From an uncultured Candidatus Binatia bacterium (GTDB lineage: Bacteria > Desulfobacterota > Binatia > Bin18): a stretch of DNA of 64,000 bases. Both the position numbers and the translations under genes were made by a program. Each line of letters starts with the position of its first letter. Position 1 is the first letter of the stretch. The notes beneath the pieces are model-generated. The model was not told where the DNA came from. It searched no databases and was given only the letters and a program-made list of their open reading frames with translations. The DNA is taken from contig CBDEWE010000003.1 of NCBI GenBank assembly GCA_965243855.1, positions 4,750,909 through 4,814,908 of the forward strand. Direction: 5' to 3'. This document shows, in pieces, positions 13,645 through 60,529 of this stretch.

Positions 13645-15936
13645 ATGAGAGAGAATACGCTGCCACTGCGCGACCCTACCTGGAGCCTCGCGTCACTGCT
13701 GACCAGACTGGCGGTGACAGACCGCGCGCGCCGGCTCGGCGGGTGGGTCGTGGCGTTGTGGGCCGGGTTGCTGCCGTCTGTCGTGCTCGCTCAGCCGCAG
13801 CACGCGCTCGAAGATATTACGGTCACCGCCCGCAAGCAGGAGCAACGCGCCTTTGACGTGCCGTTGTCGCTGTCCGTGCTCCAGGGCGAGGGGCTCGACC
13901 GGCTACGCGCCTCGGGTATGGATGTGCGTTTTCTGACCAATCGAACGCCCAGCCTCCAGGTCATGTCGGGTTTCGGACGTGTCTATCCGTATTTCTTTAT
14001 CCGTGGTCTGGGCAATACGGACTTCGACATGAATGCCTCCCAGCCGGTGTCGATCATGCACGACGGGATTGTGCTGGAAAACCCGTGGCTCAAGGGACAT
14101 CCCATCTTTGATGTCGAGCGGGTCGAGGTGCTGCGTGGACCGCAGGGCACGCTGTTTGGGCGGAATACGCCGGCCGGCATCGTGAAGGTCGAATCGGCCC
14201 GTCCGACCTGGGGGTGGGAGGGCTATGGTCGGTTGTCCTACGGACGGTTCGACAGCGTGAATTTCGAGGGGGCGCTGTCCGGTCCGCTGATCTCGTCTGT
14301 CCTGGCGGCACGCGCCTCTCTGTTGGTACAGCGCCGGAGCGACTGGATAGATAACACCTATACCGGCAAGGACAACGCCCTGGGTGGCTACGATGACATT
14401 GCCGGCCGCATCCAGTTTGTGTGGACACCGGTGGAGAATTTTTCCGGGCGGTTCAAGGTTCATGTCCGAGACTTTGACAGCAATGCCCGGGTCTTCCGGG
14501 CGAATATATTCAGGCCGGGCCGCACCGGTCTACGCCCAGGGCTACGGCGCGACAAAACTGCCCAGGACGCTGGCAATCCGCAGTACCTGGCGAGCCACGG
14601 GTTTGCCACCGAGCTGCACTATACCCTGGGCGAGTTCCGCCTGATCTCGCTGACCGGTGGGGACTGGCTGGACGGCAGATCGCGCGGCGACGTGGACGGT
14701 GGCTATGGTGCGGTCTGGAGTCCGCCCAGCGGGCCGGGTCTGATTCCGTTTCCAACCGAGACGGCCGACGGCCTCTCGGCTCTGCGCCAGTTGAGCCAGG
14801 AATTCCGCCTGGAACACACGGCCTGGCAACGCCTGGACTGGCGGGTAGGCTTCTTTTACTTCCACGAGGAACTCGACATCGAGGGTTTCAGCTATGACAC
14901 CCTGGCCGGGAGTGTACTGAACGGCCGCATCCGTCAGGATCAACGCACCGAAGCCTGGGCCGTGTTTGCCGCCGCTACCTTTACCCTGACCGAAAATATC
15001 GAACTGGCTGCGGGTGTGCGTGTCTCCGAGGACGACAAGGAGTACGCGAGTGAGCGTCTTCAATCGCCCATTGGTGCCGGTCCGCTCGGTCCCATCCATA
15101 GGGCTCCCCGCGACCTGGTACCGAGCTGGGACCTGAGCCTGCGTTATCAGCTGCGACCTGGCATTCAGCCCTATGTGCGAGTGGCCAGCAGCTTTCGCGC
15201 TCCTAGCATCCAGGGCCGGTTGCTGTTCGGTGACGAGGTGACCGTGGCCGACACCGAGGACATCATCTCGGTCGAGCTTGGTCTGAAGCTGCGTGTGTGG
15301 CAGCAGCGTGTCCATTTGGACCTGGCGGCCTATCATTTCTGGATGCACGATCAGCAGCTCACCGCGGGGAGCGGTGTGGACAATGCCAACCGGCTGCTGA
15401 ACGCCGACCGCACCATCGGACGGGGCATCGAGGCGGAGGGGACCGTGGCCTTGGGCCATGGGCTGCGCCTGACGGCCGGCCTGAGTTATAACTACACCCG
15501 GCTCGACGATACGGGTCTGTTTGTTCAGCCGTGCGGTTCGGACTGTACGGTCCTTGACCCGCCCGGCCCGGTTCCAGGTACGGTCTCCATTGACGGCAAC
15601 CGTCTGCCTCAAGCCCCCCGCTGGATCGCCAACCTGAACCTGAGCTATACGCGCGTGTTACCCAGCGGTGCGGCCTTGATCCTGGCGACCGACTGGGCGT
15701 ATCGCAGCCGCATCAATTTCTTTCTGTACGAGTCGCGCGAGTTTCGCGACAATCATCTGCTTGAGGGCGGCCTGCGCCTGTCCTGGCTGTCGGCCTCGGG
15801 CGGTCTGGAAGTGGCCGCCTTTGGCCGCAACATCCTGAACAACGTCTCGCCCACCGGCGGCCTCGACTTCAACAATCTGGCCGGCTACGTCAATGAGCCA
15901 CCGGTGTGGGGCATAGAAGCGGCGGTACGCTTGTGA
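13645..15936 (+). CDS. TonB-dependent outer-membrane receptor (tandem paralogue of the upstream gene)
   Basis: Starts MRENTLPL at 13645. Shares long identical blocks with the 11361 gene (for example SGFASELHYTLG, AVWSPPSGPGLIPFP). Confidence 0.85.
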   Translation: MRENTLPLRDPTWSLASLLTRLAVTDRARRLGGWVVALWAGLLPSVVLAQPQHALEDITVTARKQEQRAFDVPLSLSVLQGEGLDRLRASGMDVRFLTNRTPSLQVMSGFGRVYPYFFIRGLGNTDFDMNASQPVSIMHDGIVLENPWLKGHPIFDVERVEVLRGPQGTLFGRNTPAGIVKVESARPTWGWEGYGRLSYGRFDSVNFEGALSGPLISSVLAARASLLVQRRSDWIDNTYTGKDNALGGYDDIAGRIQFVWTPVENFSGRFKVHVRDFDSNARVFRANIFRPGRTGLRPGLRRDKTAQDAGNPQYLASHGFATELHYTLGEFRLISLTGGDWLDGRSRGDVDGGYGAVWSPPSGPGLIPFPTETADGLSALRQLSQEFRLEHTAWQRLDWRVGFFYFHEELDIEGFSYDTLAGSVLNGRIRQDQRTEAWAVFAAATFTLTENIELAAGVRVSEDDKEYASERLQSPIGAGPLGPIHRAPRDLVPSWDLSLRYQLRPGIQPYVRVASSFRAPSIQGRLLFGDEVTVADTEDIISVELGLKLRVWQQRVHLDLAAYHFWMHDQQLTAGSGVDNANRLLNADRTIGRGIEAEGTVALGHGLRLTAGLSYNYTRLDDTGLFVQPCGSDCTVLDPPGPVPGTVSIDGNRLPQAPRWIANLNLSYTRVLPSGAALILATDWAYRSRINFFLYESREFRDNHLLEGGLRLSWLSASGGLEVAAFGRNILNNVSPTGGLDFNNLAGYVNEPPVWGIEAAVRL

Positions 15937-16324: not shown

Positions 16325-16360
16325 GAAGTAGCCTAACTATCGAAGAGGGACACGGCATAT
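16325..16360 (+). terminator. Rho-independent terminator
   Basis: gagggacacg-gcatat-cgtgtccctc followed by TTTTTGTTT, 15 nt after the ABM gene stop. Confidence 0.7.
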
Positions 16361-16440
16361 CGTGTCCCTCTTTTTGTTTGCGCGTATGGGAATGCTTGCG
16401 TAGTGTTGAGGTGAAAAGCCACACTCAGAACGAGGCTCTT

Positions 16441-36699: not shown

Positions 36700-36950
36700 C
36701 GGAAGTGCTGAGGTGAGTCTACTCAGCCACGATTTGATAGGCAAGCTTGCGAGTGGGAATATCTCATCCCCTCTTGGGAGGGGTGCCGCAACGCGGCGGG
36801 GTGGGTTTCCGCCGGTTGAGTAGGCTGCGTCAGGGCGGGAGGGCCAGGCCGGAGGAACCCACCCCGGCCCTTCGGGCCACCCCTCCAAGGAGGGGAGTGG
36901 GTATAGAAGGCTTTTGTCCCGCTCAGCAAAGTGCTATGGCGGCAGGGGAG
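36700..36950 (+). promoter_or_regulatory. GC-rich multi-hairpin leader/intergenic element upstream of the amidohydrolase gene
   Basis: Hairpins: cccctc-ttgg-gagggg, gccgc-aac-gcggc, long-range ggggtgggtt...aacccacccc, ggccc-ttc-gggcc, cccctcc-aa-ggagggg. SD GGAGGAGG immediately before the ATG near 36960. Confidence 0.35.
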
Positions 36951-44525: not shown

Positions 44526-45347
44526 ATGGCGAATATCGTTGCAGCCATGTCGTCAGTTCACAGTCCCCTGATGATGAGTGCGCCCCAGATGGCGGATGAG
44601 GCCACCTGGGGAAGGATCAATACGGGCTTCGATACCCTCCGAGACACCTTCACTTCTGCTGGAGCCGATACGATCGTCGTTATCTCAGATGAACATTTTA
44701 ATGCGCTCGACCCGCGCCGCTATCCGTCGTTTGGTGTGGTGACGGCTGAGACGAGCGTCGGTCCGGTCGAAAACTGGCTTGGCGTTCCCTGTAACAGTAT
44801 CTCGGTCAGGTTTGAGCCGGAGCTGGCTGAAGCGGTCCTCGACGAAGGGGTTCGCCAAGGTTTTGATTTGACGCGGATTGGTGAAGTCGGTTTAGACCAT
44901 GGCTTTCTTACCTGTCTGAACTTTCTTACGCCGCAGTGGGACATGTCCTATCTCTGGCTAATTCAGAACTGTGTCCTGCCACCCCTGCCGAGCCTGAAGC
45001 GGTGTTATGATTTCGGGCGGATGGTCGGACAAGCTATCCGGTCGTGGGACAGCTCCCGCCGCGTGGCTCTGCTCGGCACGGGTGGGTTGTCGCATGCGGT
45101 TGGCACGCCGGATATGGGCAAGGTGGATGCGCATTTCGATAGAAAATTTCTCGATCTCCTGTGCCAACAGGACCCGGCCATGCTCGATATTACGGATGCG
45201 GAGATCGATGCGGTCGGCAACGGCACGCACGAGATCCGGAACTGGATTGCGGTGGCCGGGGCAGTCGAAGGTGCAAAGGGCGAAGTCGTCATGTATGAAG
45301 AAGGAACCATGGTCGTAGGCTTCGGCATGATGCAGTTCCAACTGTAA
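44526..45347 (+). CDS. LigB-type (class III) extradiol ring-cleavage dioxygenase, catalytic subunit
   Basis: 273 aa. MANIVAAMSSVHSPLMM... has LigB-family N-terminal His ligands. Confidence 0.8.
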   Translation: MANIVAAMSSVHSPLMMSAPQMADEATWGRINTGFDTLRDTFTSAGADTIVVISDEHFNALDPRRYPSFGVVTAETSVGPVENWLGVPCNSISVRFEPELAEAVLDEGVRQGFDLTRIGEVGLDHGFLTCLNFLTPQWDMSYLWLIQNCVLPPLPSLKRCYDFGRMVGQAIRSWDSSRRVALLGTGGLSHAVGTPDMGKVDAHFDRKFLDLLCQQDPAMLDITDAEIDAVGNGTHEIRNWIAVAGAVEGAKGEVVMYEEGTMVVGFGMMQFQL

Positions 45348-45360
45348 AGTCCATTCCACG

Positions 45361-45412
45361 AAGAGGAAACGTCTCCAGTATCTCGTCGCTATGGAAGGAG
45401 ACGTTTCCTCTT
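45361..45412. repeat. 52-bp palindromic element, copy 1 of a 3-member family (arms AAGAGGAAACGTCTCC / GGAGACGTTTCCTCTT)
   Basis: Perfect 16-bp inverted repeat with a 20-nt spacer. Arms and spacer are homologous to the elements at 54164 and 55467. Confidence 0.6.
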
Positions 45413-45420
45413 TAGCTCGG

Positions 45421-46302
45421 ATGAGTGGAGCCAGACAGCGTGGAACGCTCGCTGTTCTGGGTGTGGGCATCCTCGCCATCTCGACAGCCGCGCCGCTGAT
45501 CAAACTCGTTCCCGACGTCCCGCCGCTCGTGGTGGCCGCCTTTCGGCTCGGTCTCGCCGCGCTGATATTTACCCCGCTGAGCCTCGTCCGGCTCCGAGCC
45601 GCCGCCGGCTCACTATCGCTTCCTGACCTGCGGGTGGTGAGTGTGGCCGGTCTATGTCTGGCACTCCACTTTGCCGCCTGGATTGCCTCGCTCCGCTACA
45701 CCTCTGTCGCGAGTTCCGTGGCACTGGTGACCATGAATCCGCTCCTGCTCGCCATTGCCGGCTATCTCATCTGGAGGGAACGTCTCGTCCGGCGTCAATG
45801 GTTGGGGATAGGCTTGGCATTACTCGGCAGCCTGTGTATAGGCTGGAACGATTTTCAGCAGGTAGGTCCGGCCCGAGAGTCCGCGCTGTACGGCGACGCC
45901 TTAGCCGTATGCGGTGCGGTCATGATCTCTGCCTATCTGCTGTGTGGACGCCTGGCCCGCCCGCGTCTCGGCCTGAGCGTGTATGTCGGGCTGGTCTATG
46001 GGTGTGCGGCTGTTCTCTTACTCGCCGGCTGTTTTGTCCTCCAACTGCCGCTGCTGGGCTATGCCCCACGGGTCTACCTCGTCCTGGTCCTGCTTGCCCT
46101 TATCCCTCAAGTGTTGGGCCATACCATTCTGAACTGGGCGCTGGCCTATATGTCTCCGACACTGGTCGCACTGGCGATTCTTGGCGAGCCGCTTGGAGCC
46201 GCCCTGCTGGCCTGGATATTCCTCAACGAGTCAGTAGGCCTGCTCCAAGGGATAGGGGCGGTGGGCCTGCTGACGGGGATTGTAATGGGACAGCAACGGT
46301 GA
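45421..46302 (+). CDS. DMT-superfamily (EamA) transporter
   Basis: 10 TM helices and two EamA repeats. The ATG at 45391 lies inside the palindromic element, so I prefer the start at M11 (45421). Confidence 0.75.
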   Translation: MSGARQRGTLAVLGVGILAISTAAPLIKLVPDVPPLVVAAFRLGLAALIFTPLSLVRLRAAAGSLSLPDLRVVSVAGLCLALHFAAWIASLRYTSVASSVALVTMNPLLLAIAGYLIWRERLVRRQWLGIGLALLGSLCIGWNDFQQVGPARESALYGDALAVCGAVMISAYLLCGRLARPRLGLSVYVGLVYGCAAVLLLAGCFVLQLPLLGYAPRVYLVLVLLALIPQVLGHTILNWALAYMSPTLVALAILGEPLGAALLAWIFLNESVGLLQGIGAVGLLTGIVMGQQR

Positions 46303-46364
46303 CGGAACGGAGATAACGGGTCAATAGCCCGGCACAGGGCAACCACCAGGGTTGCCCTGGCCTG

Positions 46365-47072
46365 CTAGTCATTATTTGCCAGGGAAAGCAGGATTTGCAG
46401 CAGATACCAGAACATCAGGGCAACACCGGCAAATAGCGCCAGCGAGGCGGCGACGTGTTGGTCGGTCCGATAGTGGTGAATAATGTTCGAGGTTGTATAC
46501 AGAATAGACCCGGCGGCAAAGGCAACCATAATGGTGGAGAAGAACAACCCCAGGCTAAAGCCAAACATCATACTGGCCAAGATTACCCCCAGGGCGACAA
46601 ATCCGCCGACGGAGAGAACACCCCGCAGAAAAGAGAAGTCTTTACGCGTAGTGAAGGCCGTGAACGTCAGCCCGCCAAACAGCAGCAAGGTCATCAGGCC
46701 TGCCGTCGGAATCACATCCGGCGAGCTATAGTGCGTCGCAATATACAGCATGGGGAGAAAGATGACTGCCTGGGCCACGATATACAGACCCAGTCCAAGA
46801 TATTGCATCTGCGGTGAGGCATCAGACTGTGCCCAGCGGTCGGCCAACCAGGACACGCCCATGAATGCGGCGAGCACGACGAACCAGCCGTAACCACCAA
46901 CCATGGTCTGGACCAGAGCTGGTGCAAACGACGACTGCAACAGGAGATTTTCAACCAGGATAAAGGCCAAGATTGCCAATGCGAGGTGGGTGTACGTGCG
47001 GCGGATAAACTCCGCGCGCGCCACCTCAGATGCATAGGCCGCGGGCTGGGAATACGTCATCGTCGAAGCCAT
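46365..47072 (-). CDS. Bax-inhibitor-1/YccA family membrane protein
   Basis: 235 aa, 7 TM helices. FIRRTYTHLALAILAF start and a BI-1 pattern. Confidence 0.8.
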   Translation of the reverse strand: MASTMTYSQPAAYASEVARAEFIRRTYTHLALAILAFILVENLLLQSSFAPALVQTMVGGYGWFVVLAAFMGVSWLADRWAQSDASPQMQYLGLGLYIVAQAVIFLPMLYIATHYSSPDVIPTAGLMTLLLFGGLTFTAFTTRKDFSFLRGVLSVGGFVALGVILASMMFGFSLGLFFSTIMVAFAAGSILYTTSNIIHHYRTDQHVAASLALFAGVALMFWYLLQILLSLANND

Positions 47073-47189
47073 ACATACCTCCGTAGAGTTGACTATCCTT
47101 TTCTCAGGCTAATGCCCTGACAGGGGACAGTCAATGCCGAGGGCGAGAGGAAAAAAGGTTGTGAAGGGGAGAGCGTGGTCATATCGGCG

Positions 47190-47227
47190 GTAGGGAAAAA
47201 GGAAAGGGCGACCATACTGGGCCGCCC
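47190..47227 (-). terminator. Rho-independent terminator for the esterase gene
   Basis: On the minus strand: gggcggccc-agtat-ggtcgccc followed by tttcctttttcc, about 44 nt after the stop. Confidence 0.5.
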
Positions 47228-47270
47228 ATCTACATCCGATGGCAAGCAATAGGCGTACAGCCCTGCGCGT

Positions 47271-48197
47271 TTATTGAGCAAACGCGGCTTTCAGTCCCTC
47301 AGCCACTTCCGCCAGTGCTTTCTTCTGAGCGTCAAGATGGAAGAAGCTGAAGAAGCCGTGAATCGTTCCGTCGTAGCGGGATATTGTGATATTAGCCCCG
47401 GCGTCTTGGAGCTTTTTGCCGTAGGCCTCGCCCTCGTCGCGCAGAGGATCAAACTCGGCCGTGATCACCAGCCCCGGCGGGGGACTGTTCACGTATTTGG
47501 CCAAGAGCGGGGAGGCGTACGGGCTCTTTCCGGCCTCGTCGTTTTCAAGATAATGGTCCCAGAACCACACCATGGAATCCTTGGTCAGCAGATAACCTTC
47601 CCCGTTCTGCTTGCATGACTCGGTATCAAAGGAATGGTTGGTGACCGGATAGAGCAGGAGTTGGTAGGCGAGCGAAGGGGCACCCCGGTCGCCGGACATG
47701 AGCGCCACTGCTGCGGCGAGGTTGCCGCCGGCACTATCGCCGCCAACCGCTACTCGTTGCGGATCTCCACCAAGGGACGCCACGTTGAGCACCGCCCATT
47801 TGGTCGCTTCGTAGCAATCCTCGGGCGCTGCGGGAAATTTATGCTCAGGCGCGAGGCGGTAATCGACGGAAATCATCATGCAGCCGGCGGCGTTGGTCAG
47901 GGCACGACAGGTTGCATCGTGGCTTTCGAGGTCGCCGACCACCCAGCCACCACCATGAAAAAAGACCAGAACGGGAAGCGGGCCATCTCCCTCGGGCGTA
48001 TAGATCCGGACCGGCAGGTCGCCGTTCGGGGTCGGAATATCCCGATCTTCAACCTTGGCAACCGGCTCTGGATTCTCAATCTGGAAGAGCTGCTGAATGG
48101 CTTGGCGTGCTTCTGCAACCTCCATTTCATTAAAGCCGCGACCGCCGGCGGCCACGATTTGATCAATAAAGGCTTGTTCCTGCTGGCCTAGGGGCAT
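47271..48197 (-). CDS. alpha/beta-hydrolase esterase/lipase (HSL family)
   Basis: 308 aa. HGGGW oxyanion motif, nucleophile elbow GDSAGG. Confidence 0.85.
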
Positions 48198-48422
48198 ACT
48201 TCCCTCCTTGCTGTGATTCGCGCTGTGCTGTGTCGATAGGTCATGACTGGAATGAGATGTTTATCTGGGGTGAGTGGTGTTTTTCAAGAGGGTAATCGAC
48301 GCCGTACGCACATCACATGGCTGAGACACGTACGCTGGGACTCCCGGTTGACTGGAAGAAGAAAGGGAGCGGTTGAGACCGAGTCTCGGACTCTCTTTTT
48401 TCAGCCCGAGACCATGGGGCGA

Positions 48423-49388
48423 TCAGCGTGTGCTTGCCTGCCCGTTCACCCAACGGGCAAATTTGTCCGTTTCATTCCGGGCCTGCCGCCACAGGAGTTG
48501 AACCGCGCGGTCCGGGTCCCAGCTGCCAGGTCGCTCAATGAAGTCAAAGCCTAGTTTGTCCGGCGAGTCTTTAATGCTCGAACGGAGAAACGGATATTTA
48601 TCCACCCAGGCGGTGACAGGTGAATCGTAAAAATAAGGAACAGCTTCGGAAGTAAAGCTTACGGCCCGACCCTGCCGGATGTCTTTCCGTTCACTGCTGA
48701 TGTAGTCATACTTGTACTGCCGGATCGCACGGGCCGTCTCATAATAACCGATGAGGACTCTGGCGCCGGCCACCACGCGTTTTTCTGCATCTCCTTGGCT
48801 TTGGCGGCTCAAGCTGCGGAGCCGATTCCTGGCTTCTCGTACGCCCTTCTCATAGACTAGAAGCGGGCCGGACAGCACGGCCAGCGTTTCCAGCCCGCGC
48901 AAGGTGGCGAGGGCCTGGTCGCCTATGGCTTCCGTTCTCATTTGCACGCCTTCCGGCAACGGTGCCGTCAACATGGTTTGCAGGCTGGCGACCGCCTGTT
49001 TTTCTTCTTTCTTCTCTTCTATTCGCTGCCAGATTTCGGGCTCAAAAAAGATCGGACGCCGTTTTCCCTTGCGGGCGACCAACAGCAGGACGGCCTTCTG
49101 CTTTTTCTGAGCATCACGGACTGCGTTGCGGTAACTCTTACAGTTTTGAATAGGCCAGCTATTCACCTGCTCAAGGATGTCACCCTTGCGCAACCCGACG
49201 CGTGAGCCTGGGGTGAGCTGGGCAATCTCAGCAATAGGGAGACCAGGTGCATCTTTTTGCTTGGCTGGGTGGAGGGTGAGACCCAGATACTCTTGCGCTT
49301 CCTGACAGGGGTTTGCTCTGGCGGGAGACGGCTGAAAAAAGAAACTCAGTGTGACCACAGTCACAAGAACAAAAACGGAATATCTCAC
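48423..49388 (-). CDS. secreted PDZ-domain protein
   Basis: 321 aa. Signal peptide and a PDZ-like segment (GSRVGLRKGDILEQVNSWPI). Confidence 0.55.
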   Translation of the reverse strand: MRYSVFVLVTVVTLSFFFQPSPARANPCQEAQEYLGLTLHPAKQKDAPGLPIAEIAQLTPGSRVGLRKGDILEQVNSWPIQNCKSYRNAVRDAQKKQKAVLLLVARKGKRRPIFFEPEIWQRIEEKKEEKQAVASLQTMLTAPLPEGVQMRTEAIGDQALATLRGLETLAVLSGPLLVYEKGVREARNRLRSLSRQSQGDAEKRVVAGARVLIGYYETARAIRQYKYDYISSERKDIRQGRAVSFTSEAVPYFYDSPVTAWVDKYPFLRSSIKDSPDKLGFDFIERPGSWDPDRAVQLLWRQARNETDKFARWVNGQASTR

Positions 49389-49560
49389 GGGGACCTTCCT
49401 TCTCTCTTGGCTACCCGCATTTTATATATGGGAGCCTATCGAGTTCGGTCAAGGCGCATGCCGGACAGATCGTGGTCGAAAGTGAGCCAAGGCAGCCGCT
49501 TCTACATCGCCGGGGGCTACGGGATTCGAGTCGAAACCTGAGATAGGCCGGCCAGCGGGA

Positions 49561-50415
49561 CTATCTCTCCCCCCAGCGGAGTTTGCTGCGCAGGACATCA
49601 AAAAAGGTTCGATTGGGGGAGATGATGAGCGGTACGGTCACGCGAGAGCGTTGAATACGCACGGTGTCCCCACTCTTGAGCGGATGCCCTTCTTGGCCGT
49701 CCAAGGTCAGAGTGACGTCCTCATCCGGAGTCTGGACTACAACGTTGATCTCGGCTTGGTCCGGGAGAATAACCGGCCGATTTGTCAACGTATGCGGACA
49801 GATCGGCGTCAGCACGACAACGCCAAGCGTGGCATCAACAATCGGCCCGCCCGCCGCCAGCGAATAGGCGGTCGAGCCGGTTGGGGTGGCGACAATGAGC
49901 CCGTCCGCTTTATAGGTACATAAATGTTTGCCATCCACCCAGGTGGCAAGATCCATAATACGGGCCAGGGCTCCTTTATTAATGACCGCGTCATTCAGCG
50001 CCTGAAACGTGCCAACCGGCTGCTTGTCACGAACAAGCGTGGTGGTGAGCAGGCTGCGCCGCTCGATTGCATAATCGCCAGCGAAGATACGGGTGAGCGT
50101 GGTAAACAGCTCTTCGGTCGTTGTTTCGGTCAGAAAGCCCAGCCCGCCAAGATTGACGCCAAGAATAGGCGCGTCCCGTGGCGTGGCCCGCCGGGCAACG
50201 CTGAGCAGTGTCCCGTCACCGCCCAGCACGACAACCAGGTCGGCCTGGGCCATGATCTCGACTTTACGCCATCCCCGCCCCAGACCGAGCTCTTCACTGG
50301 TGCGGTCCTCCGGCAGAATGCTCTTGCCGCGCTCTTGCAGCCAGGCAACCAGATCGCGACCCAGCGCAATTGCGGCGGGCGTATTGACTTTGATGACCAG
50401 ACCGATTGTCTGCAT
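49561..50415 (-). CDS. nadK: NAD(+) kinase
   Basis: 284 aa. GGDGTLL, NDAVINKG, and D(A/G)LIVATPTGSTAYS motifs. Confidence 0.9.
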   Translation of the reverse strand: MQTIGLVIKVNTPAAIALGRDLVAWLQERGKSILPEDRTSEELGLGRGWRKVEIMAQADLVVVLGGDGTLLSVARRATPRDAPILGVNLGGLGFLTETTTEELFTTLTRIFAGDYAIERRSLLTTTLVRDKQPVGTFQALNDAVINKGALARIMDLATWVDGKHLCTYKADGLIVATPTGSTAYSLAAGGPIVDATLGVVVLTPICPHTLTNRPVILPDQAEINVVVQTPDEDVTLTLDGQEGHPLKSGDTVRIQRSRVTVPLIISPNRTFFDVLRSKLRWGER

Positions 50416-50477
50416 ACATCGAGCGGAGCGGTGAGGGCGCTCCCTTTTCTCCGTGCCTCGCGTATAATGGCCTACCT

Positions 50478-51842
50478 ATGGCAATCCGTCAGCCTCATCT
50501 GAAGGATCAGCACGGTTTATTTACTCATACTGCCGAAAAGGAGGCGGCCAAGAAAGCCCCTCTGGCCGAGCGGATGCGACCCCAGACGCTGGATACCTAT
50601 ATTGGCCAGACGCATCTCCTCGGGCCGGGTCGCCTCCTGCGCCAAATGGTTGAGCAGAAAACGCTGACGTCTCTGATCCTATGGGGGCCGCCGGGCAGCG
50701 GCAAAACGACTCTGGCCCGGGTGCTCGCCCAGGCTGTAGAATTGCCATGGGCGAGCTTTTCGGCGGTCCTGTCCGGGGTTAAAGAGCTGCGTCTCATCCT
50801 GGCGGATGCGCAGCGGCACCAGCAGCAAACGGGGCAGTCGACCGTCGTATTTGTGGACGAAATTCACCGTTTCAATAAAGCCCAACAGGACGCCTTTCTG
50901 CCGCATGTAGAGCAGGGACTGATTATCCTGATTGGCGCAACAACGGAAAATCCGTCTTTTGAAGTGATTGCCCCTCTCTTGTCGCGCTCTCGCGTGGTGG
51001 TGCTGGAAGCGCTTGAGGCGGATCAGCTTGTCCAGATTCTGTCTCACGCCTTACAGGACACCGGCCGCGGCCTTGGGCAGCATCAGATTGAAGCGGACGA
51101 AGCCGTGCTGCGAATCATTGCCGAGGCCGCACAGGGAGATGCCCGGGTCGCCCTCAATACCCTTGAGGTCGCAACAACCCTGGCGGTCCAGAAAAAAGCT
51201 ACGCACCTTGACGTGGCCCTGGTACAAGAAGCAACCCAGCGGAAGGCGATCCTGTACGACAAGGCTGGAGAGGAACACTATAATGTCATTTCCGCCTTTA
51301 TTAAGAGCCTGCGCGGGAGTGATCCCGATGCGGCCTTATATTGGATGATGCGCATGCTGGAGGCGGGGGAAGATATTCTCTTTATTGCCAGACGGATGGT
51401 CATCTTTGCAGCCGAAGACATTGGCAATGCCGACCCACAGGCATTGTCTCTGGCTATAGCAACCAAGGAAGCGGTGCATTTCGTCGGGCTGCCGGAGGCG
51501 CGTATTCCATTAGCCCAAGCCGCTACCTACCTCGCGGTCGCGCCCAAATCGAACGCGTCATACAAAGCCATGACCGCCGCCCAGGCGGATGTGCAGACCC
51601 ATGGCCCTCTGCCCGTTCCGCTCCATTTGCGCAACGCACCGACAAAGCTGATGAAAGACCTGGAGTATGGCAAGGGGTACCAGTATGCGCATGATTACGA
51701 GGATGCCGTTGTGACCCAGACTCATTTGCCTGAGAAATTGACCCAACGACGGTATTATCAGCCCAGCGATCGCGGCCATGAAAAAGTCATGGGTGAGCAA
51801 CTGAAGGCACGGCGGAAAAGGCGAGCAGACCCTCAGGACTGA
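50478..51842 (+). CDS. rarA: replication-associated recombination protein A (AAA+ ATPase)
   Basis: PLAERMRP start region, Walker [12 protein letters not shown], Walker [11 protein letters not shown]. Start chosen at M25 of the track ORF. Confidence 0.9.
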
Positions 51843-51905
51843 AACAGAGTGGACTAGGTCGGGGCAGCGTATGAAACGGCGCTGTCATACGGAAGGAGGA
51901 AAAGC

Positions 51906-53060
51906 ATGGAATACGCATCACCGGAACCTTTTACGATTGCCATTCCGGATGCGGTGCTGGCTGACCTGGAAAATCGGCTTAACCGCGTACGCTGGCCGGG
52001 CGAGCTCCCCCATTCAGGCTGGGATTACGGCGCGAATCTCTCCTATATTCAGCAACTCGTTGAATACTGGCGCACTGAGTATGACTGGCGCGCCCAGGAA
52101 CGGGCGATGAATCACTGGGACCATTTCAAAACCACTATAGACGGTCAGGGGATCCATTTTATCCACGCGCGCGGGAAAGGTCCCGCGCCGCTGCCGCTGA
52201 TTATTTCGCACGGTTGGCCTGGCTCGTTTTATGAGTTTATGGATGTGATCGGGCCGTTAACCGACCCCGCCGCCCACGGCGGTGACCCGGCCGACGCATT
52301 CGATGTGGTGGTGCCGTCCCTGCCGGGCTATGGGTTTTCCGACCCGCCGCAAGAGCGCAAAGTCAATATCAGCCGCATGGCCGAGTGGTTCGCCGTCTTG
52401 ATGCGAGAGGTCCTCGGCTATGAGCGTTACGCTGCCCAGGGGGGCGACTGGGGCGCAATGATTTCGTCCCGGCTGGGCTATGCCTATCCTGAACAACTGA
52501 TCGGTGTGCATCTCAATATGGTCGGGGCTGCGCCTCATCCGGCCAACCGCCAGAACTTGAGCGCCGCGGAAGAGGAATTTCTGAAAAGTGCGAGAGCCTG
52601 GCAACGCGAGGAGCGTGGTTATCAGGAAATTCAGGGCACCAAGCCTCAGACCTTGAGCTTTGCGCTCAACGACTCGCCCGTTGGAGTATGCGCCTGGATC
52701 GTTGAAAAGTTTCGGACCTGGAGTGACTGTGACGGGAATCCAGAAAACTCCTATACTAAAGACCAACTGCTGACCAACGTCATGATTTACTGGGTCACGC
52801 AAACCTTCCATTCGGCCTCCCGCATTTATTATGAAGAGCGGCACCATCCGTGGCGGCTGGGAAAGGACGAAAAAGTGAGTGCCCCCACCGGGGTCGCCGC
52901 CTTTCCAAAAGAGATTGCCCGCCCGCTGCGGGAGTGGGCTGAACGGGCGTATAATGTTCAGCACTGGACTGACATGCCGGCCGGCGGTCATTTTGCGGCC
53001 ATGGAGCAGCCCGCGTTGCTGGTCGAGGATATTCGGACGTTCTTCCGCGGTCTGCGTTAA
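51906..53060 (+). CDS. epoxide hydrolase (microsomal-EH-like alpha/beta hydrolase)
   Basis: 384 aa. Epoxide-hydrolase N-terminal domain, and the HGWPGSF oxyanion motif. Confidence 0.8.
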   Translation: MEYASPEPFTIAIPDAVLADLENRLNRVRWPGELPHSGWDYGANLSYIQQLVEYWRTEYDWRAQERAMNHWDHFKTTIDGQGIHFIHARGKGPAPLPLIISHGWPGSFYEFMDVIGPLTDPAAHGGDPADAFDVVVPSLPGYGFSDPPQERKVNISRMAEWFAVLMREVLGYERYAAQGGDWGAMISSRLGYAYPEQLIGVHLNMVGAAPHPANRQNLSAAEEEFLKSARAWQREERGYQEIQGTKPQTLSFALNDSPVGVCAWIVEKFRTWSDCDGNPENSYTKDQLLTNVMIYWVTQTFHSASRIYYEERHHPWRLGKDEKVSAPTGVAAFPKEIARPLREWAERAYNVQHWTDMPAGGHFAAMEQPALLVEDIRTFFRGLR

Positions 53061-53065
53061 GGTCG

Positions 53066-53770
53066 ATGGCCGACCACCACAAAATTATTCTCCACGGCTC
53101 ACGACGCTCACCTTTTGTAGAAAAAGTCTACCGGGGCCTGATGCTGAAACGCTTACCGTTCGAGATCCACGAGCCCCACACGTTTCAGGACCTCCGTCGG
53201 CATAATCCCACGACGGGCAAGATGCCGGCGCTTGAGCTGGACGGACAGCTACTCTTTGATTCAACGTTTATCCTGCGTGCGCTTGACGCCTATCAGCCGA
53301 GTCCGCCATTGCTGTCAGCCGACCCACTTGTTGCTGCACAGCAACGGTTGATTGAGGATTGGGCGGACGAGTCCCTGTATTGGTATGGCATGGCCTTGCG
53401 GTGGACGATCCCGGCCAATACCAAACGCGCGCTCCAGGTTTTCGTGTCCGCGGCACCGCCGCTGCTCCGTCCTCTCCTCAGGATCACGGCGCCACGCCTG
53501 ATGCGGTCACAGGTTCGGGCTCAAGGGACGGGCCGGCTGCCCGCGGACGTGCTGGTACGCGAACTCGATGGACACCTCGCGGCTCTGGTCAAAATGGTCG
53601 GACGTGGTCCCTTCTTCTTTGGTCTGGACCAGCCTAGCGTTGCCGACCTGGCCGTCTACGGACAATTATTCTTTCTGTACGACAAGGTCGCCCCCGAAGG
53701 CCGGGCAACAGTTGAGAATCATCCCGCGCTGACCGAACTCTGTCTACGTTTGGATGTCATGACCGACTAG
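53066..53770 (+). CDS. glutathione S-transferase family protein
   Basis: 234 aa with a thioredoxin-like N-domain and a helical C-domain. Confidence 0.7.
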   Translation: MADHHKIILHGSRRSPFVEKVYRGLMLKRLPFEIHEPHTFQDLRRHNPTTGKMPALELDGQLLFDSTFILRALDAYQPSPPLLSADPLVAAQQRLIEDWADESLYWYGMALRWTIPANTKRALQVFVSAAPPLLRPLLRITAPRLMRSQVRAQGTGRLPADVLVRELDGHLAALVKMVGRGPFFFGLDQPSVADLAVYGQLFFLYDKVAPEGRATVENHPALTELCLRLDVMTD

Positions 53771-53810
53771 GGGACAGAATATTCAGGTGGGCCTGTCCGC
53801 AAAGGCAATG

Positions 53811-54248
53811 TCAGCTCTGGGCTTGCTGCGGGATGATCTCAAAAGCGAAGGCCTCTTTATACCAGCCAATCCAGCGAAAGATGCGAGCAAGGAAATATTT
53901 GCGAAAGAAGAGCGGAAAAATAACATCCCGGACCCGTCTCTCCTCCATCCAGACCGCGATGCCCTGGAAGCGGGTTGAACCTATCTGACAGGTGACGGTC
54001 GGCGTCTGTTTCAGGTTCTTGACCCACTGCGAGTTCGAGCCTCGACCGGACGAGACATAAACCTTGTCCTGGGTTGCGACAAACCAGATTTTGACCGTGC
54101 GTGGTGTGCCTGTCTTTCGGCCGACAACGGTCAGTTCAAGGAGCGATTCGCGATTAAGAGCGGCAAGAGTAAACGTATCCAGCTTTGTCGATGTGAGGGA
54201 GGACACGTTTACTCTTTCAAGGTCATATGAGCTGTTTGCGCCGGTCAT
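53811..54248 (-). CDS. DUF385/Ddn-like F420H2-dependent reductase family protein
   Basis: LELTVVGRKTGTPRTVKIWFV...VSSGRGSNSQWVKNLKQTPTVTCQIG matches the Ddn-family core (TTGRKSG-PR...ASKGG...W..NL..NP.V.VQIG). ATG lies 10 nt after the purM stop. Confidence 0.65.
   Translation of the reverse strand: MTGANSSYDLERVNVSSLTSTKLDTFTLAALNRESLLELTVVGRKTGTPRTVKIWFVATQDKVYVSSGRGSNSQWVKNLKQTPTVTCQIGSTRFQGIAVWMEERRVRDVIFPLFFRKYFLARIFRWIGWYKEAFAFEIIPQQAQS
54164..54217. repeat. ~54-bp palindromic element, copy 2 (arms AAGAGTAAACGT / ACGTTTACTCTT, 30-nt spacer)
   Basis: aagagtaaacgt-atccagctttgtcgatgtgagggaggac-acgtttactctt. Lies within the predicted 5' coding region of the Ddn-like gene. Confidence 0.6.
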
Positions 54249-54258
54249 AGCGTCGCCA

Positions 54259-55356
54259 TCATTCCAGCGGCCCAAAGCGCCCTGCCGTGCCCTTGAGGTT
54301 CCGAGGCTCGATGATGATCGTCCGCTCCGGAGAGGGAACCGTCGTACCGAGGCGCCAAGCCTGGACGCCATGATCGGCGGCGATCCGCATCACGCGGTCA
54401 GCCTCCACCTCAGCAACCACAACACAGAAGCCTATCCCCATATTATAGACCTGGTACATTTCCGCGTCGGTGATCTGCCCAACGTCCTGCAACACTGTGA
54501 AAAGTGGGGGCGGCGGCGGAAGGGTATGAATATGATATCCCACTGCGGCCGCGGTCCGAGTGAGATTGAAAAAGCCGTCTCCAGTGATGTGAATCAGGGC
54601 TTTGAGCTGAATATCGGCGGCAAACATGGCGGTGATTTCCGGAACATAAATATGGGTTGGTTCCAGCAGTTCTTCTCCGACGGTACGTCCAAGTTCCTGC
54701 AGATAGCTATCGACCTTGAGTCGGGCACCCTTGAACAGTACCTGTCGGGCCAAGGTTAAGCCATTACTATGGATGCCGCTGCTGGCAAGCCCGATCAGCG
54801 TATCGCCCGGCTCGACCTCTTTGCCGATAATAATACGGTCAAGCGGAACCGTCCCGATAGCGGTACCGGCGAGGTCCAGGCCACCGCCGTCCCGAACGCC
54901 GTGAACCATCTCCCTGAGTTGTGCAATTTCTCCACCCGCAATATTGACCCTGGCCTGCTCGGCACCATGATGCAGACCTTGACCTAATGCGTCGAGCACA
55001 TCTGGTTGTAAACTCTCGACCGCGACATAATCAACAAACGAGATCGGGGTTGCGCCAACGCACAACAAGTCGTTGACGTTCATGGCGATACAGTCAATGC
55101 CCACCGTATCGTATTTCCCCAGCAGCTCTGCCACCAGGAGTTTGGTCCCAACCCCATCGGTGGTAATGCCAATACCGAGGTTGAACGCGTCGAGACGAAT
55201 GATGTTGGCAAAATATCCAAGAGGCAGAGCGGGCCGAGCAGTGGGGTGAAAAGAGAAGGTTTGTTCGACCCAGGCACGGAGTCGATTTAAGCCCGCTTCG
55301 GCCTGTGTGCTATCGACGCCTGAGGCAGCATACCGTGGGTCTCTTACGCGATCCAT
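54259..55356 (-). CDS. purM: phosphoribosylformylglycinamidine cyclo-ligase (AIR synthetase)
   Basis: Starts MDRVRD (M100 of the track ORF). TTDGVGTKL, IDCIAMNVNDLLCVGATP, and the PurM C-terminal domain. Confidence 0.8.
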   Translation of the reverse strand: MDRVRDPRYAASGVDSTQAEAGLNRLRAWVEQTFSFHPTARPALPLGYFANIIRLDAFNLGIGITTDGVGTKLLVAELLGKYDTVGIDCIAMNVNDLLCVGATPISFVDYVAVESLQPDVLDALGQGLHHGAEQARVNIAGGEIAQLREMVHGVRDGGGLDLAGTAIGTVPLDRIIIGKEVEPGDTLIGLASSGIHSNGLTLARQVLFKGARLKVDSYLQELGRTVGEELLEPTHIYVPEITAMFAADIQLKALIHITGDGFFNLTRTAAAVGYHIHTLPPPPPLFTVLQDVGQITDAEMYQVYNMGIGFCVVVAEVEADRVMRIAADHGVQAWRLGTTVPSPERTIIIEPRNLKGTAGRFGPLE

Positions 55357-55466
55357 GTGCCGCTCTACTCTACCGAATCTCTTATCCGAAGGCAATTGTC
55401 CGGCTCTGCTCTTGACTCCATACTGAGCCACGCTCACTATGAAAGAGAGTCCACCGATACGTTTCA

Positions 55467-55520
55467 AAAGAGTCAACGTATCCAGCTTTGGCGATATGAG
55501 GGAGGACACGTTTACTCTTT
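55467..55520. repeat. ~54-bp palindromic element, copy 3 (direct orientation relative to copy 2)
   Basis: aagagtcaacgt-atccagctttggcgatatgagggaggac-acgtttactctt. Sits in the divergent purM/exeA intergenic region. 51/54 identical to copy 2. Confidence 0.6.
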
Positions 55521-55551
55521 TCAGTCCTGCGAGACTGTCTGTCAGACGCCT

Positions 55552-57429
55552 ATGTATGAAGCCTTTTACGGTTTTCAGGAAAATCCGTTCCGCCTCACCC
55601 CAGACCCGCGTTACCTCTTTCTGAGCGCCAATCACCAGGAAGCCCTTGGTCACCTCCTATTTGGGGTGAATGAGGGCAATGGCGTGGTGGTCCTGACCGG
55701 AGAAATTGGTGCGGGGAAAACGACGCTCCTGCGGACCCTGGCGAGCGATCTGGATGCGTCGATAACGCTTGCGTATCTCTTTAATCCCGCGCTGTCCGAC
55801 GTCGAACTCTTGCAAGCGATCAATGCCGACCTGGGACTACCGGCCGACTCAACGAGCAAAAGAGAGTTAACCGACGAACTCAACCGTTTTCTTCTCGCCC
55901 AACAGGCTGCGGGACGACGGGTGGTGGTGATTATTGATGAAGCCCAGAATCTGGCAGTGCCGGTTTTAGAACAGCTCCGTCTCCTCTCTAACCTCGAGAC
56001 CGAACAAGAAAAGCTGCTGCACATTATTCTTGCCGGGCAACCAGAACTGCGTGAAATTTTGGCCCAGCCAGAACTTGCCCAACTCGACCAGCGCGTGACC
56101 ATACGCTGGCATCTTGAGCCACTAGGTGTAAAAGAAACCGCAGCCTACGTCCGACACCGGCTCAGCGTTGCCACAGATGGACGAGAAGTCTCGCTTTTTT
56201 CGCCTTCGGCCCTGCGGCGGGTGTACCGTTTTTCGCGCGGTATCCCGCGACTCATCAATATCCTGTGCCACCGTGCGCTCTTGGTTGGTTATACTCAAGA
56301 AGAGTCACACATACGGTCACAGACGATTCGACAGGCGATCAAGGAATTACGTCGCCATACGACTCGTAGCCCGCGCTTTCGCTGGTCGCCGACCACTGCG
56401 ACGATCGCACTCGTTGTTGGCGGATTCCTGCTGGTCTGGGGAAGCTTTGATATTCCTGCGGCGTGGAATCAATTGGACTTGTGGGCATCGCGCGAAGATG
56501 CACAACGCCCTCCCCCAGCGGACACTTTTCCCGTACCGGAAACGCGGCCCGGCGTTTCTCAGGAAGAACAGAAAGGGGCGGAAACACCGTCCTCCACCTT
56601 GGAGCCACGGGTCGGAGACCTTGCGGTTGCACTATCCTCCCCTCAGGAATTATTCCACACGCTCCAGCAGGACGAGATGCTGTCCAGTGCCGTGCGAGCA
56701 ACACGCGAACTGATTGCCACGTGGCAGGGGTCGCCTTTGGAAGAAATTGAGTGGCAAGGCGGGAAACTCGACCTTGCCACCATTGCTGCCGCTCGTCGGC
56801 TTAAGTATCTGCCTGTACGGAGTGATATCCGCCTCCTGACCCTGCTGGACCTGCCAGTGATGATCGGTTTGACTGTTCCACCTTCTCAGCAGACGCGCTT
56901 TGCTCTGATCCGCCAGATGACCGATACCCACTGTCGTATCCGGCTGGAGAGAGATTACGTCGTGCCACTCGAAGCGATTACGCAACGCTGGTTCCGGGAA
57001 GCGCACGTCTTTTGGAAAAACTACGAAGAGATCCGAACAACCCTGGCTATGGGCAGTAGTGGCCCGGCGGTCGAGAAATTGCAAACCCTATTGGCCAACG
57101 TCCCCACGCCGTCTCATAGAGGAACCCTGCGCGTCCATCAGGCGGGAGAGCCGACGCCGTTTTTTGGGCCACAAACGCAGGACGCGGTAGCGCGATTCCA
57201 GAAAATGCAGCGCCTCGTCCCCGACGGGATCGTTGGGCCGCAGACCCTGATTCTCCTGTATCGTCGCCTTCCCGAGTATACGCCGCCGAGTCTGAGTCGA
57301 AGAGAGAGGGTAGAGGGTGCATTTGCCGTTCAATTCCCAACGGGGGTACGGCAAGGAACAGATCTTCCTCTTCGTGGAGAGAGGGCCGAGCCCATCGAGC
57401 AACTGGAGCCTATGGGGAAGGACGCATGA
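55552..57429 (+). CDS. ExeA/GspA-like AAA ATPase with C-terminal peptidoglycan-binding domain
   Basis: Starts MYEAFYGFQENPF. Walker A TGEIGAGKTT, Walker B VVVIIDEAQ. One TM segment. C-terminal PG_binding_1 repeat (VEKLQTLL...DGIVGPQT). Confidence 0.8.
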   Translation: MYEAFYGFQENPFRLTPDPRYLFLSANHQEALGHLLFGVNEGNGVVVLTGEIGAGKTTLLRTLASDLDASITLAYLFNPALSDVELLQAINADLGLPADSTSKRELTDELNRFLLAQQAAGRRVVVIIDEAQNLAVPVLEQLRLLSNLETEQEKLLHIILAGQPELREILAQPELAQLDQRVTIRWHLEPLGVKETAAYVRHRLSVATDGREVSLFSPSALRRVYRFSRGIPRLINILCHRALLVGYTQEESHIRSQTIRQAIKELRRHTTRSPRFRWSPTTATIALVVGGFLLVWGSFDIPAAWNQLDLWASREDAQRPPPADTFPVPETRPGVSQEEQKGAETPSSTLEPRVGDLAVALSSPQELFHTLQQDEMLSSAVRATRELIATWQGSPLEEIEWQGGKLDLATIAAARRLKYLPVRSDIRLLTLLDLPVMIGLTVPPSQQTRFALIRQMTDTHCRIRLERDYVVPLEAITQRWFREAHVFWKNYEEIRTTLAMGSSGPAVEKLQTLLANVPTPSHRGTLRVHQAGEPTPFFGPQTQDAVARFQKMQRLVPDGIVGPQTLILLYRRLPEYTPPSLSRRERVEGAFAVQFPTGVRQGTDLPLRGERAEPIEQLEPMGKDA

Positions 57430-60241: not shown

Positions 60242-60529
60242 ATGACATTAACGGAACGCATCCAGCTTTTTTTTGGTAAGGGTGGAAGTGGAAGTAAGGA
60301 CGCGGCAAAGAATCGTCTCCTCCTGGTTTTACAAGACGACCGGCTTGGTTTGACTGGGGAAAAGAAGGAAGCCTTGCGGAAAGACATCCTTGCGGCAATT
60401 CGGAAGCATCTCGATATCGACGCGGAGGGCTTCACCATGGAGTTTATGTCCAGCTCAGCAGATCAGAAGGAGATGCGGGTCACCGCCCCCGTACAGCTTG
60501 GCCGGGGGGCAGTGAACCTCTCAAAATAA
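60242..60529 (+). CDS. minE: cell division topological specificity factor MinE
   Basis: 95 aa. Starts MTLTERIQLFFGK. Has the anti-MinCD and topological-specificity domains. Confidence 0.9.
   Translation: MTLTERIQLFFGKGGSGSKDAAKNRLLLVLQDDRLGLTGEKKEALRKDILAAIRKHLDIDAEGFTMEFMSSSADQKEMRVTAPVQLGRGAVNLSK

Follow-up and report, generated by a model that had tools for sequence, protein, structure and literature searches.

The window analysed here, a 64,000-nucleotide stretch from an uncultured Candidatus Binatia bacterium (contig CBDEWE010000003.1, positions 4,750,909 to 4,814,908 of the forward strand), holds three copies of a 54-bp palindromic element, two of which lie on either side of purM. The 54-bp unit is very probably a lineage-wide, non-autonomous mobile hairpin repeat of Binatia and no dedicated regulator of purM. 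Across the family, copies are gained or lost as whole blocks without duplication of the target, insertion sites show a dyad-symmetric preference, sites are reused or turned over, the palindrome is kept up, and copies are tolerated inside open reading frames (ORFs). A full-text literature search yielded no account of Binatia palindromic repeats, and the family is apparently undescribed so far. Small palindromic mobile repeats are already known as a category, to which this family is an addition.

Three copies of a 54-bp palindrome in the window

All three copies were detected by an arm pattern, by a repeat finder and by nhmmer. Copy 1 (45360-45413, + strand; GAAGAGGAAACGTCTCC-AGTATCTCGTCGCTATGGAA-GGAGACGTTTCCTCTTT) carries the G-C variant of a variable arm pair and copy 2 (54164-54217, +; CAAGAGTAAACGTATCC-AGCTTTGTCGATGTGAGGGA-GGACACGTTTACTCTTT) the T-A variant, and copy 3 lies at 55467-55520 (+; AAAGAGTCAACGTATCC-AGCTTTGGCGATATGAGGGA-GGACACGTTTACTCTTT). 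The pattern AAGAGKMAACGT-N(20-32)-ACGTTTMCTCTT matched the window only at 45361-45412, 54165-54216 and 55468-55519, with no match in 100 dinucleotide-preserving shuffles of the window (chance expectation 0). The repeat finder clustered the same three sites (94% identity over 53 nt between copies 2 and 3, 68% between copies 1 and 2), and an nhmmer profile recovered them with E values of 1e-16 to 5e-22 and found no fourth copy in the 64 kb. The three homologous palindromes proposed by an earlier, sequence-only reading of the window are thus real, and their arms, spacer motifs and shared orientation were read at all three sites as it had described them. Its coordinates stand for copies 2 and 3; copy 1 needed to be extended to 45360-45413, and every copy measures 54 bp instead of 52-54 bp. 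Moreover, copies 2 and 3 are 50/54 identical, differing at four positions and not at the three implied by the 51/54 given earlier. The boundaries are (A/G/C)AAGAG and CTCTTT in all three copies, and every spacer reads in the same orientation on the + strand.

The window copies are predicted to fold into 12-16-bp hairpins both as RNA (z -2.6 to -4.9, -21 to -31 kcal/mol) and as DNA (z -3.5 to -6.7). Copy 1 forms a perfect 16-bp stem with a 20-nt loop, the stem of copy 2 contains an A.C mismatch on the + strand that is a G.U pair on the - strand, and copy 3 has one C.T mismatch in its arm.

Two further candidates in the window were rejected. A partial match at 60255 is a chance match inside minE. 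The palindrome at 16343-16372 is an ordinary intrinsic terminator with a T-run: directly 3' of a stop codon, a perfect 12-bp palindrome (AAGAGGGACACG-GCATAT-CGTGTCCCTCTT) is followed by TTTTTGTTTG, and its AAGAG and CTCTT ends bear a merely superficial likeness to the 54-bp repeat.

Distribution of the family in Binatia genomes

In total, 185,579 species-representative genomes were scanned with AGAGNNAACGTNTCCN{18,30}ACGTTNNCTCT, and loci were taken as eight-kb tiles (cited below by L-numbers). At least 113 tiles matched, where about 3-4 chance matches were estimated from the database size and the 21 specified bases. Among the matches listed, the hosts are about 20 metagenome-assembled genomes (MAGs), labelled Candidatus Binatia or Binatota except for one labelled Thermodesulfobacteriota. 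As a negative control, 80 metagenomic loci with purM relatives from other lineages were searched, and none (0/80) carried the element. The relaxed arm pattern counted at least 131 strict copies in 0.9 Mb of tiles, in addition to about 45 diverged or truncated ones. From 131 copies in 113 tiles, a zero-truncated Poisson model gave about 0.3 strict copies per 8 kb, or about 190 per 5-Mb genome, an order-of-magnitude figure in which diverged copies are not counted, and the number of copies per Binatia genome is estimated at 100 to a few hundred. The window itself holds 3 copies in 64 kb. Its coding DNA is only 65-75% identical to that of the tile genomes, and the window genome is therefore a more distant relative with the same family.

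Structure of the 54-bp unit

An alignment of 134 copies gave the consensus AAAGAG[T/G]AAACGTGTCC for the 5' arm, AGC[A/T]TCT..CATG.TCTATTGGA for the loop and GGACACGTTT[A/C]CTCTTT for the 3' arm. The modal length is 54 bp, followed by 55 bp, and conservation ends abruptly beyond AAAGAG and CTCTTT. With terminal inverted arms of 17 bp around a loop of 20-21 nt, each single strand is able to form a long hairpin. Conserved and asymmetric, the loop has AGC on its 5' side and TTGGAGG on its 3' side, and every copy therefore has an orientation.

In the 17-pair stem, 96% of cells of the alignment pair. At pair 7-51, U-A occurs in 79 copies and G-C in 41, with 8 copies left unpaired, and pairs 8-50 and 14-44 have changed on both sides as well. 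The covariation score was reached by none of 500 shuffles, and pairing was lost when the register was slid; the nine stem pairs fixed by the search pattern are uninformative for covariation.

Filled and empty sites

The 250-bp flanks of each copy were compared against all other tiles. At least 12 distinct sites were found at which the flanks align up to the junction and the 54/55-bp block is the sole difference. For example, the site at L002:5567 is filled (...catcttgccgg[54 bp]ttccaccttgg...) and its counterpart in L100 is empty (...catctttccggttccaccttgg...), as is that in L092; ftsA is filled in L004 and L012 and empty in L058. Further sites are filled in L025 and L040 and empty in L077, or filled in L036 and L045 and empty in L112. 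Among the 134 copies, no target-site duplication of 2 bp or more was found; matches between the two flanks cover 1 bp in 55 cases, 2 bp in 9 and 3 bp in 2. The flanks show a weak dyad symmetry, with G at -5 in 47%, C at -4 in 53%, G at +4 in 43% and C at +5 in 54% of copies over a background of about 29% for each base, and with a near absence of A at -6 (4/134) and of T at +6 (2/134).

Filled sites also differ in what they contain. The loop is reverse-complemented in 6 of 30 filled orthologous pairs, including L023/L104, whose flanks are 99% and 91% identical, and the T-A and G-C arm pairs are exchanged at several shared sites, such as L036/L045 and L004/L012. In L002, copies at 5565-5618 and 6163-6217 occupy both short spacers of a three-gene cox-type dehydrogenase operon, which encodes a large, a small and a FAD subunit. 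Between the large- and small-subunit genes, in the spacer before the large-subunit gene, L002, L103, L100 and L092 were compared: two genomes are empty and two are filled, and the two filled sites have different arm variants and opposite loop orientations. The same position has therefore been hit twice, or a copy there was excised, exchanged or turned round on the spot.

Another repeat family, GC-rich and composed of several hairpins (CCCCTCTTGGGAGGGG...GGGGTGGGTT..AACCCACCCCGGCCCTTCGGGCCACCCCTCCAAGGAGGGG), was seen at 36766-36897 of the window and also at L106:2004-2049, L048:3338-3382 and L055:7511-7551, with several occurrences in L035 and L109; the window and the Binatia MAGs share 90-97% identity in it. 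At several loci, the 54-bp element is nested inside this second repeat at one fixed position, between ...GGAGGG and GTGCCGC...

Genomic placement and copies inside genes

Genes in the tiles were called by a crude caller based on codon usage, with approximate starts and some genes missed, and the context counts are accordingly approximate: 57 copies lie in co-directional spacers, 32 in divergent and 13 in convergent spacers, and 27 inside called ORFs. For 22 of the 134 copies (about 15%), coding potential in one and the same frame flanks the element on either side. These intragenic copies make use of all three reading frames and yield peptides of the types KEETSP..., (Q/E)RGNVSS...DTFPL and KSKRV...GHV.S(L/F). 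Copies persist in frame inside conserved genes because 54 bp equal 18 codons and most reading frames of the unit are open. Compared with the solved structures of Escherichia coli MnmG (8zu0, 3g05), MnmG of L083 shows a single gap of exactly 18 residues, located at the element. In L093, the UvrA-like gene can be aligned to solved UvrA both before and after its copy, which falls in a gapped, variable loop. FtsA with a copy has an insert-free orthologue at the DNA level, and an MrpA/NuoL-like gene holds a copy as well.

In one frame, the T arm variant reads AAA GAG TAA, and several upstream ORFs end in '...KE*' inside the element (L061, L072, L102 and others); at L087:2252-2306, a single copy ends both of two convergent genes. 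Gene callers applied to Binatia MAGs are thus misled into false N-terminal extensions and, because the arm supplies the TAA, into protein ends of this kind. A disruptive case was found at L072:4261-4315 (OZ244620.1), where an in-frame TAA and a frameshift brought in by a 55-bp copy split a di-haem oxidoreductase (DHOR, PF06537) gene. The downstream ORF of 76 residues matches PF06537 profile positions 451-499; once both ORFs are joined, the score climbs from 41 to 62 bits and the match spans the junction. Judged by these profile matches, the gene is probably a pseudogene killed by the insertion.

Taken together, the presence of many copies in many Binatia genomes, the precise filled and empty sites and the occurrence in every genomic context, genes included, bear out the first of the three natures that the sequence-only reading had offered for the element, a repeat resembling repetitive extragenic palindromic (REP) sequences or MITEs (miniature transposable elements with inverted repeats).

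A probable DNA rather than RNA element

A hairpin selected in mRNA would show more G.U than A.C pairs on the sense strand and one dominant orientation. In co-directional spacers and ORFs, the sense strand carries 22 G.U wobbles and 42 A.C mismatches, copies are oriented 35 versus 49 relative to transcription, and pair 14-44, read relative to the loop, is equally often G.U (15) and of the A.C type (14). At least 17 nt separate the conserved GGAGG from the 3' end of the element, too great a distance for it to be the ribosome-binding site of the next gene. No Rfam covariance model matched the window at gathering thresholds, and none matched 54100-55600 at E <= 5. With no excess of sense-strand G.U, no dominant orientation, no Rfam match and so distant a GGAGG, the element behaves as a symmetric DNA entity.

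These results bear on the proposal, also made from the window alone, of a translational hairpin that sequesters a Shine-Dalgarno (SD) sequence. In its broader form, a cis-regulatory RNA hairpin would be selected at many genes, either to mask SD sequences or to stabilise or process mRNA between cistrons. The stable folds of -21 to -31 kcal/mol, the GGAGG on the 3' side of the loop and the many copies in short co-directional spacers near start codons agree with such a role. Nevertheless it is very unlikely, since the pairing and orientation counts run against it, the GGAGG is too remote to serve the next gene, copies also lie in ORFs and in convergent and divergent spacers, and presence or absence differs between close relatives at the same site. 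Effects on RNA, such as a transcript hairpin with a predicted -20 to -30 kcal/mol, are likely, though incidental. Intrinsic terminators were considered as well and rejected: a GC-rich stem with a following U-run at gene 3' ends defines them, but a terminator and promoter scan around purM reported no site at the elements, and family copies also occur in 5' regions and inside ORFs.

Gene context of the window copies

Copy 1 starts 12 nt past the stop codon of a LigB-family dioxygenase gene (44526-45347, +; Pfam) and occupies most of the 73-nt gap to ATG 45421 of an EamA/DMT transporter gene (45421-46302, +; Pfam). As noted before, it overlaps an ATG of the transporter gene: its loop contains ATG 45391, the start of the longest EamA ORF, and a second in-frame ATG follows at 45421, so that either position may be the start.

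Copies 2 and 3 lie on either side of purM (AIR synthase, Pfam AIRS/AIRS_C; 54259-55356, -), which is not part of the element. Copy 2 is situated 41 nt beyond the purM stop codon. The sequence-only reading had it simply downstream of purM, and this position holds; the copy also lies in frame at the 5' end of the next gene, which encodes a protein resembling F420H2-dependent quinone reductases (F420H2_quin_red) and DUF2255 (53811-54248, -; PF04075, 3.6e-12). Placed between ATG 54248 and the conserved body of this gene, copy 2 would encode ERVNVSSLTSTKLDTFTL, and the ORF reads MTGANSSYDL-ERVNVSSLTSTKLDTFTL-AALNRESL... In the relative L117, which lacks the element here, the ATG of the downstream gene stands about 10 nt past the purM stop (MPDLQALNRESL...), the same position as ATG 54248 of the window, and the two orthologous products share 59% identity from residue 28 of the window protein onward. 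Translation may start at ATG 54248, which would make copy 2 an 18-residue coding insert, or at a GTG within the element.

Copy 3 is located between the divergent genes purM and exeA, 31 nt upstream of the ATG (55552) of an exeA-like gene for an AAA ATPase with a peptidoglycan-binding domain (55552-57429, +; Pfam) and 110 nt upstream of the purM ATG (55356). Over purM and exeA, the window shares 91% identity with the metagenomic contig L114, which lacks copy 3; window positions 55461-55522 match about 11 nt in it. In total, the window has 75 extra nt here, bounded by a 5-bp direct repeat, AGTCC. This difference is compatible with an insertion in the window lineage and also with a deletion in L114 that the hairpin stimulated. 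In the more distant relatives L116 and L118, purM adjoins exeA without the element.

Immediately left of copy 3, 55441-55466 (+; GAAAGAGAGTCCACCGATACGTTTCA) holds an AAAGAG hexamer and an arm-like GATACGTTTC, and the extra sequence on this side, ACCGATACGTTTCA, resembles an arm fragment. This segment may be what remains of an older copy that has degraded, or it may, together with the AGTCC repeat, reflect a slippage deletion in L114.

The sequence-only reading had stressed that copies 2 and 3 bracket purM, and had proposed to look for relatives in which purM stands without them. Such relatives exist, L114 without copy 3 and L117 without copy 2, and they keep purM at the same locus; the bracketing of purM as a unit does not hold. 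By the same comparison it is scarcely credible that the copies are attC-like or dif-like recombination sites that make purM a mobile cassette. The 93% identity and direct orientation of copies 2 and 3 around the gene would suit such sites, but purM lies beside exeA and the same downstream gene in relatives without the copies. In addition, closely spaced pairs of copies elsewhere (L002, L020, L088, L033, L062, L106) flank unrelated, ordinary genes such as coxS, an FKBP-type isomerase gene and folD. By eye, the arms are unlike the attC core and inverse-core consensus (RYYYAAC/GTTRRRY), and no integrase was noted among the ORFs listed for 42.5-58.5 kb, not all of which were scanned against Pfam. 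The direct orientation of copies 2 and 3 around purM therefore looks coincidental, since pairs elsewhere flank unrelated genes and purM synteny is kept without the copies.

Elsewhere in the window, 11443-12567 and 13769-14893 contain two blocks of at least 300 nt that are 82% identical at a constant offset of 2326 bp, with smaller repeats at the same offset. Such an arrangement suggests that a gene or gene pair has been duplicated in tandem.

Proposed mobilisation and points against it

As a mobile hairpin repeat that is not autonomous, the 54-bp unit would have its copies moved in trans, by an enzyme encoded in the genome and able to recognise the hairpin or its arms. Single-strand cut-and-paste of the HUH type, as by a REP-associated tyrosine transposase (RAYT), would fit best, because the junctions are precise and free of duplication and the unit is a hairpin. 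The three window copies would then be insertions specific to the window lineage, and their local by-products would be a stable hairpin in the ligB-EamA transcript, in the transcript from purM to the next gene and in the exeA or purM leader, as well as, in the gene that follows purM, a new start region or 18 inserted residues.

Several observations weigh against this reading. In the approximately 1 Mb of sequence at hand, neither a transposase nor an autonomous parent turned up; tblastn searches that used IS200 TnpA and E. coli RAYT as queries gave no credible RAYT or IS200-like match, and neither did a scan for the HUH...Y..NP motif. This sample covers a few percent of the genomes, and the absence of a transposase from it is weak evidence. 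Loop orientation shows no bias with local GC skew (p = 0.86) or with the gene-strand majority (p = 0.22), two proxies for the replication strand. A single-strand mechanism that is strand-specific thus finds no backing here, although a bias of this kind would be wiped out by flipped loops. The host range and the copy numbers given above are estimated from the matches listed. At shared sites, element identity is 0.88 and that of the mostly coding flanks 0.89, so copies are not in free decay; to judge from these identities, equal conservation implies constraint or homogenisation, and a host function is possible. By the crude gene calls, moreover, divergent spacers (32) hold more copies than convergent ones (13), an excess that could reflect spacer length or a promoter-related role.

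The last two of these points would also suit a dimeric DNA-binding protein, a global regulator or nucleoid-associated protein whose binding sites the copies would form, in a large regulon or in chromosome structuring; so would the AACGT/ACGTT half-sites, which are invariant at fixed spacing, partly as forced by the search pattern. It is extremely unlikely all the same, and with it the suggestion, made earlier for the window copies, of an operator for a dimeric regulator. At positions 7/51 and 8/50, the two arms change together so that pairing is preserved, with T-A and G-C alternating, for which protein half-sites give no reason. The whole 54-bp block, including a loop that is conserved and that flips, is present or absent as a unit, and copies lie within coding sequences and convergent spacers.

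Two negative results concern the source of mobility within the mobile-repeat reading. A RAYT between closely spaced copies was considered and rejected, ordinary genes being there instead, and no long autonomous element sharing the arms was found in the same 1 Mb, where solitary arms all come from compact or truncated copies. An unlikely variant is that the family is an ancient, vertically inherited, Binatia-wide hairpin replicator, whose enzyme is neither a DDE transposase nor a typical RAYT and acts exactly at weakly dyad-symmetric sites, the in-gene copies being tolerated, translated modules of 18 residues. Such an enzyme would account for the lack of duplication, the reuse of sites, the loop flips and the arm swaps. 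Still more remote is the idea that in-gene copies with a stop or a frameshift, such as that in the DHOR gene of L072, might be bypassed or removed at the level of RNA or the ribosome, by analogy with T4 gene 60 and the mitochondrial byp elements.

Comparison with known systems

REP doublets forming hairpins (REPINs) consist of two inverted ends and a spacer, occur in many copies without target duplication and persist vertically (PMC3116915, PMC3337134), and HUH/Y1-type mobilisation has been proposed for them (PMC3116915). A strict REPIN system, in which a single-copy, vertically inherited RAYT (an HUH tyrosine transposase) copies a hairpin made of a REP doublet, is a special case of the mobile hairpin repeat proposed here, and one to be held as a possibility and not as the expectation. 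The Binatia element likewise has two inverted conserved ends and a spacer that together form a hairpin and are gained or lost as a whole block, is estimated at 100 copies or more, has exact junctions without duplication and persists across many species of one lineage. However, REPINs are extragenic, measure about 70-110 bp, are built from REP units that are themselves palindromes and lie next to a RAYT gene, whereas the Binatia element has simple arms, which are not REP-type palindromes with a conserved 5' tetranucleotide, is not confined to extragenic space (22/134 copies lie in frame inside ORFs, about 15%), shows no replication-strand bias and has yielded no RAYT in the 1 Mb at hand.

Bacterial MITEs such as Correia/CREE, ERIC and Chunjie are small non-autonomous repeats with terminal inverted repeats that lie in operons and occasionally in genes (PMC10969869). 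The Binatia element shares with them its small size, its lack of autonomy, its many copies and its terminal inverted repeats on a short (<500 bp), non-coding, multi-copy unit. Classical MITEs make target-site duplications at each copy and share their ends with a parent insertion sequence (IS); the Binatia element has no duplication of 2 bp or more and no parent IS was seen for it in the 1 Mb at hand, and at 54 bp it stands at the smallest end of the MITE range. Palindrome-associated elements derived from IS200/IS605 (PATEs) depend on hairpins and integrate and excise precisely without duplication, which the Binatia element resembles in its hairpin and its duplication-free junctions. PATEs differ in having distinct left and right hairpins, insertion 3' of a specific tetra- or pentanucleotide and a replication-strand bias, where the Binatia element has one symmetric hairpin, a weak and symmetric target preference and no correlation with skew.

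Beside REPINs and MITEs, the systems closest in kind are, by analogy, above all the Rickettsia palindromic elements (RPEs). These palindromic repeats are confined to one lineage and lie both between genes and in frame in unrelated conserved genes, to which they add a peptide segment without destroying the ORF (PMC10969869). The Binatia element is likewise palindromic, restricted to one lineage and present both between genes and in frame in unrelated protein-coding genes. Rickettsia offers the best-known cases of small palindromic repeats that survive in protein-coding genes, and the Binatia element is a second system of this kind in a different, uncultured lineage. Its length of exactly 18 codons, its clean filled and empty sites and the several complete chromosomes on hand for comparison make its site choice, its sparing of genes and its mobilising enzyme tractable by computation. 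The repeat could also be mistaken for a regulatory motif, as in the case of purM, and could serve as a lineage marker in metagenomes. RPEs measure about 100-150 bp and belong to the obligately intracellular Rickettsia, whereas the Binatia element measures 54 bp (18 codons) and was shown to have exactly empty sites, loops that flip and a dyad-symmetric preference in the choice of site. It may therefore be regarded as an analogue of the RPEs, with no membership among them claimed, set apart by size and host. What is unusual about it is that it measures exactly 18 codons, has clean empty counterparts, flips its loop and prefers its targets symmetrically.

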